Program-made: the position numbers and the translations under genes | Virus record (IMG/VR): IMGVR_UViG_3300017780_003104 | Span: 147,725-211,724 of that record | From: a virus | Taxonomy: Duplodnaviria > Caudoviricetes | DNA: 64,000 nucleotides | Strand: one strand, 5' to 3' | In this document: positions 2,950-48,508 of the stretch, piece by piece | Numbering within the stretch: the first letter of the stretch is position 1 | How the letters are laid out: each line of letters opens with the position of its first letter | The notes under the pieces: generated by a model | Told to the model about the DNA's origin: nothing | What the model saw: the letters and a program-made list of their open reading frames with translations, nothing else | Database searches by the model: none

Positions 2950-4605
2950 ATGTTTGAGAATAAAAGAAACGCAGAAGTCGTGACTGTTAAATCAGTTACT
3001 CGTAAGGAAGTTAACGCATTCCTAAACAATGCTAAAGCAGAATCATCCAAGACTCGTTCTGGTAACGGGGCATTGAAATTCAGTTCAAGTGGTGATTCGT
3101 TTACCGATCAGTTTACTAAGGCTGGTAAGTATAAGGAACCTCGTAAGTTCTCTCAAATCGCACAAGATTGTGAAATGTTGTGGGGTGAAGACCCTCTCAA
3201 GTGTGTGAAGTTCGCATTGTTTCTTCGTACTATTCCTCGCGTAGTTAATCTTCCTGATGGAAGTAAGACTGAACTTCCTCAAAAGGGAACCGAGTTGAAG
3301 CATGAAGCAATTATGCGTATGCTTTGGTTGAGTGATAAGTCTCCTCAAGCATTCTGGAATAACATTCTATTGTTTGTTTCTCTTGGATCTTGGCACGATG
3401 TTTTCACTATGCTTCAATATGATCTTAGCTACAACGGTTGGAATAATCGTAAGCTTGATTGGGATAAGTTTGGTGAGTTGATTCTTGCTGGTCTTAACAA
3501 TAAGAACACCTGTGATCTTATTAAGAAGTATCTTCCTCAAATCAAGTCTCGTAGTCAAGCTACGACTATTGATGCTCAATCCAACAATGCTATTGCTAAG
3601 TGGATTTGCTCTCTAGTCTTTGGTAACAAGGAAAGCGCATCTTCATACAAGGCTTATCGTAAGATCAAGACTAGTGGAACCGCGCATGATTGGCAAAAGC
3701 TTATCTCCCAAAAGAGAATGAGTGAATTGGATTTCAATAAAATTCATGGTCGTGCTCTATCAATTCTTGTTAAGAGTAAGTTCTTAAAGAACCAAGGACT
3801 TAGCGATAAGTATGCATCTTGGATTACTGCACCTACCACCAAGGAAGTTAAGTATACTGGATTCGTCCATGAACTCTTCGAAGGTAACTGGAAGAACGAT
3901 AAGAACAACGAAGCAACTATCAATAAGCAATTCGATACTCTTGTTCAAAAGGCAAGAACTAATGAAGTTACTGATTTGATTGTCGTTCGTGATACTTCTG
4001 GATCGATGTCTTCAATTTGTCCCGGCACTAAGTCTTCATGTCTTGATGTTGGAAAGGCAATCGCTCTATACTTTAGTGAATTCCTTCAAGGAACCTTTGC
4101 GGGTCATTGGATTGAATTCAACTCTGATGCTAAACTTCAAAAATGGGTTGGTCAAACTCCCGTTGATAAGTGGAAGAATGATAAGTCAAGCTTTTATGGT
4201 GGAACTAACTTTCAAAGTGTTGTTAATCTTCTCGCTAAGATGAAGAAAGAGGGAACACCTGAAAGTGATTTCCCTAGCGGTATCCTTTGCATTTCCGATG
4301 CAGAATTCAATCCTACTTCATTAGGTAAAACTAATGTTGAGACTGCGTTGACTACTCTTCGTAATGCTGGATTCTCCAAGGCTTATGTTGATAACTTTGT
4401 GATTATTCTTTGGAACCTTCAAAATAGTTATTATGGTAAAGGGTCTGGTGAAAAGTTTGAGACTGGTAAAGAAGTAAACAACGTTTACTATCTGGGTGGG
4501 TATAGTGCCTCCGCAGTTAGTTTCCTTTCAGCTAAGATCAAGACAACCTATGATCTAATCAACGAGTGTCTTAATCAGGAAGTTTTGAATATGGTTGAGA
4601 TTTAA
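2950..4605 (+). CDS. DUF2828-like TROVE/Ro60-related protein with C-terminal vWA domain
   Basis: N-terminal SGNGALKFSSSGD...WGEDPLKCVKFALFLR; vWA MIDAS VRDTSGSMS, GGTNF, CISDAEF, ILWNL; 551 aa, Ro60-like size. Confidence 0.75.
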   Translation: MFENKRNAEVVTVKSVTRKEVNAFLNNAKAESSKTRSGNGALKFSSSGDSFTDQFTKAGKYKEPRKFSQIAQDCEMLWGEDPLKCVKFALFLRTIPRVVNLPDGSKTELPQKGTELKHEAIMRMLWLSDKSPQAFWNNILLFVSLGSWHDVFTMLQYDLSYNGWNNRKLDWDKFGELILAGLNNKNTCDLIKKYLPQIKSRSQATTIDAQSNNAIAKWICSLVFGNKESASSYKAYRKIKTSGTAHDWQKLISQKRMSELDFNKIHGRALSILVKSKFLKNQGLSDKYASWITAPTTKEVKYTGFVHELFEGNWKNDKNNEATINKQFDTLVQKARTNEVTDLIVVRDTSGSMSSICPGTKSSCLDVGKAIALYFSEFLQGTFAGHWIEFNSDAKLQKWVGQTPVDKWKNDKSSFYGGTNFQSVVNLLAKMKKEGTPESDFPSGILCISDAEFNPTSLGKTNVETALTTLRNAGFSKAYVDNFVIILWNLQNSYYGKGSGEKFETGKEVNNVYYLGGYSASAVSFLSAKIKTTYDLINECLNQEVLNMVEI

Positions 4606-4750
4606 ATATCTTAAACTTTCTATCTAAAAAGAGAGTGGAGTCTTTGTAAATAAAGTTTCCGATGCGACCAACTTTATCTAGAATCAATAGACAAGCCGAC
4701 TGATTTGGAAAAATTTACAATGACAATAATAACAGCAAAATTAGAAGAGG

Positions 4751-4779
4751 TTGACAAATCTAAATTTCATGATTAAATA
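4751..4779 (+). promoter_or_regulatory. sigma70-like promoter upstream of RNA array
   Basis: TTGACA at 4751-4756 followed by AT-rich -10 region (TGATTAAATA). Confidence 0.5.
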
Positions 4780-5189
4780 AAGATCCGATGAGGTTTCGGT
4801 AGCTTCCTATGGCGAACAAATAAAACTACCAATAAGATTGCTTCAGCAAATATATTTTTATTTAAGGAAAAACAAAAGCAATCTGATAAGAGGACAAACT
4901 ACAAATACAAAAAATCAAACGTCCTCTGATAAGAATAAGTAACAGCAAAAACAATAAAAAATAAAAGCAAATATGCTAAACGATGAAAGTCGTCCGGGTA
5001 TCCTCACCATATTAGAGGTTGTAATATGGAGCTTAGAAGGGAGTCAATCTTAACTTATTCTGATAAAGTCATAAACTGCAAATAAAAATACTATTATGCA
5101 AAATAGCCTGTCGGTGGGTCCGAGGTAACTAAAACGGTTCGATTCCGTATCTATGACTTGCATAAAATCTCTTCAGCAAATAACGGAAC

Positions 5190-5272
5190 GTAAAACTCCC
5201 ATACGTGTGGTTCAAATCCCGCTGCTCACACTTTATTAAAAAGTGGGTATAGCCAAGTGGTAAGGCAGGAGT
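5190..5272 (+). ncRNA. circularly permuted tRNA-like module (YrlA-like), unit 5
   Basis: 3' half (actcc, T-arm TTCAAAT, tgctcac) precedes 5' half (gtgggta, D-arm gccaagtggtaaggc, ggagt). Confidence 0.85.
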
Positions 5273-5324
5273 CCAAAAACAATGAGATTTAATAGAAATA
5301 CTCCAGCAAATAACGCAACAAGGA

Positions 5325-5403
5325 ACCGTGTGTCGAACGTTCGATTCGTTCTCTCCCACCATATAAGTAAAATGGGAGGTAGCTCAGTTGGTAGAGCAAC
5401 GGT
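5325..5403 (+). ncRNA. circularly permuted tRNA-like module (Phe-like body), unit 6
   Basis: accgt-gtgtc-gaacg TTCGATT cgttc-tctccca-CCA, linker, then tgggagg-ta-gctcagttggtagagc-a-acggt. Confidence 0.88.
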
Positions 5404-5738
5404 AAGCAAAAAACATAGTATTTCGATAGGATTATATTCAGCAAATATACTACTCAACTGTTAATTGAAAAAAGTAAAAGTAATCCGATAAGAATTTCAG
5501 CAGCATAATATCGTAACTATAACGACTCTAAGGTAGCTTAGGTTTGGGAAACCAATACGGCGATGGTAGATAGGTAAACTAAGTTCTTTATAGAATATGT
5601 AAACCCTACGGGACGAACGATTGAATATTTATATATTCTTTAATGTGTCAGTGAAAGATGAAATTCTGATAAAATTAGCAACAGCAAACCAAACAAAAAT
5701 TTGACTTTTAATCAAACAATAAAATGCTAATTTGATAC

Positions 5739-6318: not shown

Positions 6319-6655
6319 GATGGAAGAATATTATGTATTTATAACACCCGACAATGTAATATGGGGGGTGGGACTTTCTAAGAAAGAAACAGTAGAGGAT
6401 GCTCTTAAAAATATTAATGATTATCCCGATTGGGATTCTAAGCCAAAGAGTGGTAAGATTGTGAGAGCTACATATGAACTAGCATGGGAAATCTGGGATA
6501 ATGGATTCAATGAAGATGTGTGGGACTTAGAGAAGAATGGTGAAATGTGGTTAGCTATATTAAAGGATAATAATCCAGATGATCATTATACTCAACTTAC
6601 TATAAAGGAAACAAAACTAAAATACAATTAATTAAAACCGAACTATAATAACAAT

Positions 6656-7120
6656 ATGAAGAACATGAACATCGCAACCGCATTGAAAGAGAAAAATCGA
6701 ATCACGGGACGCATTAGTGTATTGCAAGCACAAGTCTATAAGTTTAATACCTATACTAAAGGAGTTGATCAAGACTTCAATTCGAATGATCTTTTAGTAA
6801 AACTACAAGAAGAGTGGGCATTCCTAATTGATCTTAAGACTAAGATCACAAAGGCCAATGTTGGTATTACTGACAAGTTGGTGCGACTCACAGAATCCAA
6901 GGCTGAACTTTCCTTCTGGAATAGCTTTAGGAATACTGGATCAAGTGAGACTAAGAGTAATGAACGCAAGTATATTGACGGTGAGTGGGCATATGTTGAG
7001 GTTGCAACCGTCAATACCATCAATAGTAAAACCGTTCAAGAGAACGTTGATCGTGTTCAAAAGCAAATTGAAGATCTCCAAGATGAGATTGACAATTATA
7101 ACGGGACCACAAAGATTTAA
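6656..7120 (+). CDS. DIP1984/DUF6847-like helical-bundle protein
   Basis: NIATALKEKNR..LIDLKTKITKAN..LQDEIDNYN pattern; promoter 6 nt upstream. Confidence 0.6.
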   Translation: MKNMNIATALKEKNRITGRISVLQAQVYKFNTYTKGVDQDFNSNDLLVKLQEEWAFLIDLKTKITKANVGITDKLVRLTESKAELSFWNSFRNTGSSETKSNERKYIDGEWAYVEVATVNTINSKTVQENVDRVQKQIEDLQDEIDNYNGTTKI

Positions 7121-18915: not shown

Positions 18916-19009
18916 ATGAGTGTGACCCGAATTGGTTAAGGGCGCGGTTTCATAAACCGTTATGAGGTTGATAGCCTCTTTGAGAGTTCGAGTCTCTCCA
19001 CTCATACCA
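18916..19009 (+). tRNA. tRNA with CAT anticodon (probably Ile2) and long variable arm
   Basis: gcggt-TTCATAA-accgt; ~20-nt variable arm; A73+CCA; 94 nt. Confidence 0.85.
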
Positions 19010-48355: not shown

Positions 48356-48435
48356 TTTGTGCGCGTTTTATTTTTATTCTCTTTGGACTTATCACGCTTT
48401 TGTTATCCAAATCAGTTGGGTGCTACCCAACATCG

Positions 48436-48508
48436 TGCCTCGTATGGGAATTGCACCCATGTAAAAAGAGATTTAGAGTCTCTCGCCTAACTACTCGGCC
48501 AACGAAGC
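48436..48508 (-). tRNA. amber suppressor tRNA (CTA anticodon)
   Basis: agaga-CTCTAAA-tctct; full cloverleaf; T-loop TGCAATT. Confidence 0.85.

Follow-up and report, generated by a model that had tools for sequence, protein, structure and literature searches.

Why does a freshwater phage carry, in a non-coding array beside the gene of a Ro60-shaped protein, a small RNA unit that repeats a piece of the ribosomal large subunit, and what could such a unit be for? The DNA analysed here (the window, 64,000 nucleotides) forms the end of a virus record of 211,724 bp that has direct terminal repeats and whose source is fresh water. The unit in question, unit 8, is a structured RNA of about 180 nt (5491–5667) and the eighth in the array. 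The features of the window on which the following description relies are these:

2950..4605 (+): gene of a Ro60-shaped protein of 551 aa, a HEAT-repeat ring and a vWA domain, the latter bearing the MIDAS motif DTSGS
4606..5738 (+): non-coding array of stem-closed RNA units, with no credible ORF and with CAGCAAA-type and CYGAUAAGA-type motifs
4751..4780 (+): promoter-like TTGACA-N18-TAAATA, read directly from the sequence, preceding the first full unit
5491..5498 (+): 5' strand of the closing stem P0, AGAAUUUC, which pairs with 5660–5667 and is followed by the CAGCAGC motif (5498–5504)
5511..5525 (+): H69-like hairpin UCGU-AACUAUA-ACGA, equivalent to 23S 1908–1922
5512..5537 (+): segment resembling 23S, with 23/26 positions as in E. 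coli 23S 1909–1934
5523..5527 (+): 5' strand of helix P1, CGACU, 5 nt ahead of CUAAGG
5528..5536 (+): CUAAGGUAG, which corresponds to 23S 1925–1933 and is better conserved than any other strand of the module
5544..5555 (+): hairpin P2, UUGG-GAAA-CCAA, in the place that H71 has in 23S
5556..5649 (+): remaining core of the family-A cargo, made up of UACGGCGAUGG, the P3 domain (5567–5608), CGGGACGAACGAU, the P4 hairpin (5623–5638) and UUUAAUGUGUC
5650..5654 (+): remnant of the P1 3' strand, AGUGA, in which AGU pairs with ACU 5525–5527
5660..5674 (+): 3' strand of P0, GAAAUUCU (5660–5667), and the trailer UGAUAAAA

The 23S-like segment aligns with E. coli rrlH without gaps, and its three mismatches amount to a single GUC to ACU change at 1922–1924. 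It is the sole match to the 23S 26-mer in the window when up to three mismatches are allowed, and no match appears in 100 dinucleotide-preserving shuffles. The copy stands alone: there is no LSU rRNA match anywhere in the 212-kb phage record, the Rfam LSU search of unit 8 finds nothing up to an E-value of 10, the core motif of the segment is single-copy in the phage genome, and the remainder of unit 8 resembles 23S at the level of shuffled sequence. With no LSU model match and no colinear rRNA past the short string, unit 8 is neither a 23S rRNA gene nor a fragment of one. An earlier note on this DNA, made from the letters alone, had described a near-copy of the 23S H69 region free of flanking rRNA, and both descriptions hold. 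The note had also placed the H70 site of MazF-mt6 beside the mimic; UUCCU (23S 1939–1943) follows GGUAG in no member of the family described below.

Several further readings of the segment were tried and rejected. Alignments beyond CUAAGGUAG, to 23S 1935–2100 and to whole 23S, are at shuffle level, and a resemblance of UGUAAACCCUACGGGACGAACG to 23S 2035–2064 was dropped on the same ground. Base pairing of CUAAGGUAG with rRNA finds no complement in the E. coli rrn operon. The hairpin does not qualify as an anticodon arm, its loop AACUAUA lacking U33, and in a comparison with the 11-nt GAAA-tetraloop receptor (CCUAAG/UAUGG) the second strand is not in register.

The array that holds unit 8 begins 1 nt past the Ro60-like gene and extends for about 1.1 kb as a tandem of about nine units. 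Each unit has its own closing stem, a CAGCAAA-type motif past the 5' strand and a CYGAUAAGA-type trailer past the 3' strand, and this layout is common to about 80 related loci. TTGACA and TAAATA hexamers are also found just past the Ro60-like gene in L001, L003, L004 and L007. The sister unit at 5327–5401 gives a partial Rfam match to YrlA in its tRNA-like core (33 bits, E = 5e-5), below the curated cut-off. Weak Rfam matches to Dictyostelium Class I RNA at 4836–4885 and 5430–5487 (30 and 16 bits, respectively) arise because the units resemble that RNA in layout, with a CAGCAA box after a short closing stem; this likeness is probably a coincidence. Across 5290–5425, a 95%-identical relative (L085, a contig of run X5) skips 134 nt and is without exactly one array unit, so that arrays differ from one another through whole units gained or lost. 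Contigs of an RNA-library run from a sample holding the phage, where DNA carry-over is possible, cover 4460–4682 and 5083–5345, with none on unit 8, and a search with unit 8 alone lists no RNA data set; these results speak neither for nor against expression of the unit. Downstream of the array, about 35 nt at 6626–6662 match many places and contigs in metagenome runs, with two further copies in a 21.6-kb relative contig. This looks like a short repeated element of the phage genome, perhaps a promoter or regulatory box.

The earlier note had proposed looking for the same insert in homologous arrays, and it is indeed found there. About 100 loci were gathered by protein-guided and pattern-guided searches; most arrays are without the module, which is present in about 10 of the roughly 80 arrays examined, in ten distinct versions from two divergent phage groups. 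In family A (the window, L084, L007, L011, L001 and L099) the Ro60-like proteins are 78–95% identical, and in family B (L028, L032, L034 and L092) the identity is about 55% where a Ro60-like gene is present. The match of each version to E. coli 23S is given below, together with the 5' and 3' strands of helix P1, which is described further on:

Window, L084 and L007: 23/26 over 23S 1909–1934
L011: 25/26 over 23S 1909–1934; P1 CGGUU/AGCCG
L001: 20/24 over 23S 1912–1933, with a 2-nt insertion; P1 CGGCA/UGCCG
L099: 16/18 over 23S 1916–1933; P1 UGAUC/GAUCA
L028: 16/18 over 23S 1916–1933; P1 UGGCC/GGCCG
L032: 24/30 over 23S 1911–1938, with a 2-nt insertion and UAACU kept; P1 UGGCC/GGCUA
L034: 22/25 over 23S 1909–1933, with a 2-nt deletion and CGUAA kept; P1 UGGUC/GACCG
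L092: 20/22 over 23S 1916–1937, with GCGAA kept; P1 UGGUU/AGCCG

Jointly, the ten versions span 23S 1909–1938, and all of them sit at the same 23S coordinates. The letters that are invariant across nine aligned phage sequences, AUAA.G...CUAAGGU.G, are those of E. coli 23S, and in CUAAGGUAG eight of nine letters are invariant across the same phage sequences and E. coli 23S, with U replacing A in one member. Which parts of the H69 loop and 5' strand are kept differs among members of both families, so that the whole 1909–1938 segment looks ancestral. The simplest reading of these sequences is that the ancestor of the module had the entire segment, which would have been either captured from a 23S gene or kept near 23S by selection.

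Two further pattern scans of viral contigs, a genome scan and a metagenome scan returned only the ten versions and chance matches in coding sequence; three matches in bacterial genomes are of the latter kind. Twelve contig look-ups of the closest protein relatives added L084 and L099, and the other DNA that they returned consists of module-less arrays. When the approximately 100 loci were compared by BLAST with the E. coli rrn operon for other rRNA-like cargo, only chance 12–13-mers were found. One of these, ACUCCUACGGGA (16S 338–349) in L007, was rejected as rRNA-like cargo, and so were three 12-mers in L019, which are located in tRNA genes. The 284-nt version at L092 7752–8035 (= L094) lies among tRNA-like sequences and has the handle motifs CUGCAA and UGUAAUC; no Ro60-like gene is present within the 5–7 kb fetched on either side of it.

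Unit 8 matches no Rfam family. P0 has changed on both sides, to AUUCCA/UGGAAU in L007 and to GAGUCUA/UAGACUC in L001. Among the ten members P2 is formed by seven different 4-bp stems, all capped by an unchanged GAAA loop. The RNAalifold consensus of family A contains 44 pairs, 21 of which show both-sided changes, spread across P0, P2, the P3 domain and P4. The family-A core is not 23S-like: its helices covary, and its strands UACGGCGAUGG, CGGGACGAACGAU and UUUAAUGUGUC are invariant. Covarying helices thus surround the 23S-like segment, which argues for selection on RNA. Of the further hairpins reported in the earlier note, UUGG-GAAA-CCAA (5544–5555) and GAAUAU/AUAUUC (5623–5638) are real and covary. 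A cUACGg tetraloop, also reported there, is not conserved and is replaced in relatives by AGAUACGGG or UUAUACGGG; nor is the CCCUACGGG element conserved as a tetraloop hairpin, since UACGGGACGAACG is an invariant strand whose 5' neighbours show no covariation.

The segment itself takes part in a helix, P1, that closes the cargo. The 5' strand of P1 corresponds to the 3' strand of the H69 stem, extended by two nucleotides, and its complement, which follows GUGUC or its counterpart, lies near the 3' end of the cargo. P1 has 5 bp in 7/10 members. Over all ten members 44/50 cells are paired, a count reached in 0/5000 partner permutations, and folding of single sequences gives the helix independently for L034 and L099. 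A shortened 3' partner (AGUGA or AGUAA) leaves only 3 bp, ACU with AGU, in the window, L084 and L007.

The same strand can also form a local H69-like hairpin of 3–5 bp. In the window the hairpin consists of a 4-bp stem and a 7-nt loop, lies 0.4 kcal/mol above the minimum-energy fold and has pair probabilities of 0.42–0.54; by member, the modelled pair probabilities are about 0.5 in the window, 0.85 in L084, 0.36 in L007 and about 0.8 in L011. These four have the AACUAUA loop closed by a U-A pair, the six remaining members have other loops or none, and L092 and L099 are essentially without a local stem. The earlier note held that the G-to-A change in the segment is compensated by T5511 and that the H69 stem is thereby preserved, and each statement stands in part. 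The U5511/A5525 pair is possible, but the ACU/AGU remnant of P1 in the window offers A5525 a second partner, U5652. The 4-bp hairpin is possible too, but it is only about half populated in the window model, and it is not the conserved fold of the family because the CGGNN strand forms P1 in 7/10 members. The conserved family architecture is P1 enclosing CUAAGGUAG, P2 and further domains. According to the folding models, the H69 stem-loop is displayed only in the lineage of the window, where it would compete with P1 or replace it.

The order of elements in the module (stem strand, CUAAGGUAG, linker, small hairpin, CGAU strand) parallels that of 23S (H69 3' strand, 1925–1933, H70 strand, H71, ...ACGAAU), with only the first part of the parallel statistically supported. 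In L034 and L092 the 3' strand of P1 and its flanks (ACGGC-GACCG-UA) resemble 23S 1901–1912, a likeness that scores at noise level against whole 23S and is in part due to complementarity. If it held, P1 would be the true H69 stem with an opened loop; we take this as a lead only.

The presumed partner of the array RNAs is the 551-aa Ro60-like protein. Pfam recognizes only DUF7788 in it and does not match TROVE; its many homologues additionally bear DUF2828. The top PDB matches that Foldseek finds for its AlphaFold model (pLDDT of 71, built from 20 homologues) are 9kop and 9l5y, the TROVE domain and Ro60 dimer of Thermus phage phiLo, 1yvp, Xenopus Ro60, and 2nvo, Deinococcus Rsr (E-values of 6e-7 to 5e-4 over about 500 columns). 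As the best matches of the model are Ro60/TROVE structures, the protein is Ro60-shaped.

Other genes of the phage also concern RNA. A Thg1-like gene (tRNA-His guanylyltransferase family; 709–1506, +) is located two genes upstream of the Ro60-like gene, and the neighbourhood of NAPRTase, nucleoside deoxyribosyltransferase, Thg1 and the Ro60-like gene is found again in relatives. A gene for an Rnl1-type RNA ligase is located elsewhere in the same phage. The phage genome contains no RluD-, RlmH- or RtcB-like genes, no gene for a candidate target factor lies near the array, and a phage collection searched with the locus gave no match. The record has 22 tRNA genes. ARAGORN lists a tRNA-Pyl with the anticodon CUA at 48435–48508 (−), which Rfam also sees as a tRNA; it may be an amber suppressor, hinting at TAG readthrough or recoding. 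The 94-nt tRNA-Met that ARAGORN finds at 18916–19009 (+) is absent from the list of Rfam tRNA model matches at the curated threshold and may be an unusual or interrupted tRNA. Free-standing LAGLIDADG genes are present in L097/L098 (3529–4314, −), where the gene directly follows the Ro60-like gene and splits it from the remains of the array, in L107 (3237–4007, −), and in the phage itself (record 144661–145437, −), whose copy is 27% identical to that of L097/L098.

With moderate confidence, we propose that unit 8 is a ribosomal-site mimic, an rRNA-like cargo carried on a Y-RNA-like handle, with its gene next to that of a Ro60-shaped protein. The unit would either be excised from the array transcript or act as part of it, and would bind the Ro60-like ring through the handle. 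The cargo is a conserved multi-helix RNA of about 150 nt whose 5' strand copies 23S around helix 69: the H69 loop, the 3' stem strand, the junction strand CUAAGGUAG leading toward H70/H71, and a GAAA hairpin in the place of H71. By analogy with YrlA-type Y RNAs, which present a tRNA mimic, the H69-region mimic would engage a host or phage factor for that part of the 50S subunit and hold or present it at the ring. Candidates could be RluD/RlmH, the recycling or splitting factors RRF and HflX, release or elongation factors, the decoding helix of the 30S subunit or a ribosome-directed defence nuclease. We infer descent from 23S or selection towards it, the transcription of unit 8, its binding by the Ro60-like protein, and the existence and identity of the mimicked factor. 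What is shown is the identity with 23S, the isolation of the match, its recurrence in ten phage lineages, the covariation of the helices around it and the Ro60-like fold of the neighbouring protein. The context also fits the proposal, with the Ro60/TROVE-like neighbour, the YrlA-like sister unit, the Thg1-like enzyme and the Rnl1-type ligase. Counting against it, most members use the CGG strand in P1, so that no H69 hairpin is displayed there; the cargo is unlike 23S outside the short segment; the module occurs in a minority of arrays; L092/L094 is without a Ro60-like gene in the 5–7 kb fetched on either side; no gene for a candidate target factor lies near the unit; and the phage is without RluD- or RlmH-like genes. 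A bolder extension, possible but tentative, is that jumbo phages carry a programmable set of translation-RNA decoys on a common handle for the Ro60-like ring, comprising a loop-opened H69 copy with the junction strand, tRNA bodies and anticodon arms, in which this unit would capture a host H69-region factor. Examples would be a defence nuclease aimed at ribosomes, a factor for subunit splitting or recycling, or RluD.

Whether derived from 23S or convergent, the segment might by now be a mere structural block of a cargo with some other function, such as the binding of an exonuclease (PNPase, for example), a small ligand or another RNA, and its likeness to H69 would then play no part in recognition. 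We regard this as rather unlikely, although several observations fit it: the conserved fold puts the CGG strand in P1 and not in an H69 hairpin, the invariant joining strands of family A are unrelated to 23S and are what an aptamer or ribozyme core would show, and the Yrl RNAs of Thermus phage phiLo bind PNPase (PMC12135203). It accounts less well for the fact that the positions conserved across families are exactly those shared with 23S, and for the full H69 loop and 5' strand that the lineage of the window has kept or regained (25/26 in L011), which structure alone does not need; nor does any Rfam family match the unit. The pairing alternatives of the CGG strand could themselves be the function, if the strand alternated between the local H69-like hairpin and P1 as a two-state switch that alters display or processing. 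The two pairings are mutually exclusive, both are possible in L011, L034, L028 and L032, and in the window the two folds differ by just 0.4 kcal/mol. Such a switch seems improbable to us, however: in this small sample of ten sequences, covariation specific to the local hairpin is not seen outside the lineage of the window, and a local stem is all but absent from L092 and L099.

The segment could also matter as DNA. The interval 23S 1909–1934 is the well-known recognition region of I-CeuI, and a target or remnant of a homing endonuclease of this type, devoid of RNA function, could in principle lie in unit 8, all the more as a LAGLIDADG gene is located 7.6 kb from the unit in the phage genome and L097/L098 and L107 each have one inserted next to the Ro60-like gene. 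We consider this very unlikely. There is neither an intron nor an endonuclease gene at the site, the three mismatches fall at its centre, and the LAGLIDADG proteins of the phages are not particularly similar to I-CeuI, giving weak matches to I-HjeMI, I-AniI and PI-SceI. The segment lies within a unit of covarying helices and is conserved in distant arrays despite diverged surrounding DNA; a DNA-level remnant is not expected to be conserved in this way, and the possibility raised in the earlier note that the match is such a remnant, without conservation, is not borne out. Least credible, to the point of being negligible, is a chance likeness between an AT-rich structured RNA and a short conserved rRNA string. 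The match is only about 26 nt long, and the comparison of some 100 loci with the E. coli rRNA operon does yield many exact 12–13-mers. Nevertheless, no shuffle of the window matches, one relative reaches 25/26, and ten lineages align at identical 23S coordinates, the 23S letters that they keep complementing one another.

Y RNAs are regarded as tethers and gates for Ro60, and to our knowledge the sole natural mimicry described for them is that of tRNA. If the proposal of a ribosomal-site mimic is true, an RNA partner of Ro60 with a copy of a functional centre of the large subunit would extend Y-RNA mimicry to rRNA, and unit 8 would be the first rRNA-mimicking Y RNA. It would also point to a host factor that acts on helix 69 and that phages need to control, and the 180-nt RNA would be a simple bait for finding it. 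The association of Ro60 with adjacent Y RNAs, in phages as well, and the tRNA mimicry of YrlA are established (PMC4201824, PMC12135203, PMC7824862). A literature search returned tRNA-mimicking Y RNAs and phage Ro60–Yrl complexes, and no report of a Y-RNA-like RNA that copies rRNA.

The closest known relative in design is the YrlA-type Y RNA (RF02553; Chen et al. 2014, PMC4201824), likewise a non-coding RNA beside a Ro60-like gene and likewise modular, with an end-to-end stem and a domain copying a translation RNA. In YrlA the tRNA copy joins the handle via an opened loop; similarly, in most members here, the strands of P1, the H69-stem equivalent, are at the two ends of the cargo. The cargo, however, copies a part of 23S instead of tRNA. 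The stretch 5485–5680 has no match to the YrlA model up to an E-value of 10, and unit 8 has no tRNA-like domain. The handle motifs also differ, being CAGCAAA and CYGAUAAGA here and GNCGAAN0-1G in YrlA; CAGCAGC and CUGAUAAAA of unit 8 are only loosely like the Ro60-binding motif GNCGAAN0-1G / GGUCCGA (PMC4201824), and the closing stem covaries. Unlike in the YrlA systems, the protein belongs to the DUF2828/DUF7788 family without a Pfam TROVE match, and about nine RNA units follow one another in tandem. In Thermus phage phiLo (PMC12135203; 9KOP, 9L5Y), the Ro60 homologue phiRo60 is likewise encoded with adjacent Y-RNA-like genes, Yrl1 and Yrl2. PhiRo60 is the best structural match of the window protein, at a sequence identity of about 15%. 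There are two Yrl RNAs in phiLo and an array here, and no rRNA-like module has been reported there.

Mimicry of rRNA by a short RNA has a precedent in the autoregulatory leaders of ribosomal-protein operons (L1, L10, L20 and S8), which mimic rRNA and compete with the ribosome for a factor. There, too, a short RNA from outside the ribosome imitates a part of rRNA to which a protein binds. Those mimics, however, are located in the 5' leaders of the mRNAs that they control and bind the encoded protein, whereas unit 8 stands free in an array of phage small RNAs that has no gene for a ribosomal protein near it. With the H69-H70-H71 junction of 23S itself (E. coli 1906–1962) the module has in common 23–25 of the 26 letters of 1909–1934 and the succession of a hairpin or stem strand, CUAAGGUAG, a short linker, a small hairpin and a strand containing CGA(A)U. 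It differs in that the H69 equivalent has 3–5 weak pairs as opposed to six G+C-rich ones in 23S and finds its partner mostly in a distant 3' strand, in that the UUCCU strand of H70 is missing, and in that a 4-bp GAAA hairpin is the equivalent of H71. Seen against the ribosomal original, the family would be a natural example of a piece of rRNA remodelled to fold anew, with its stem partner moved to the far end of the cargo.
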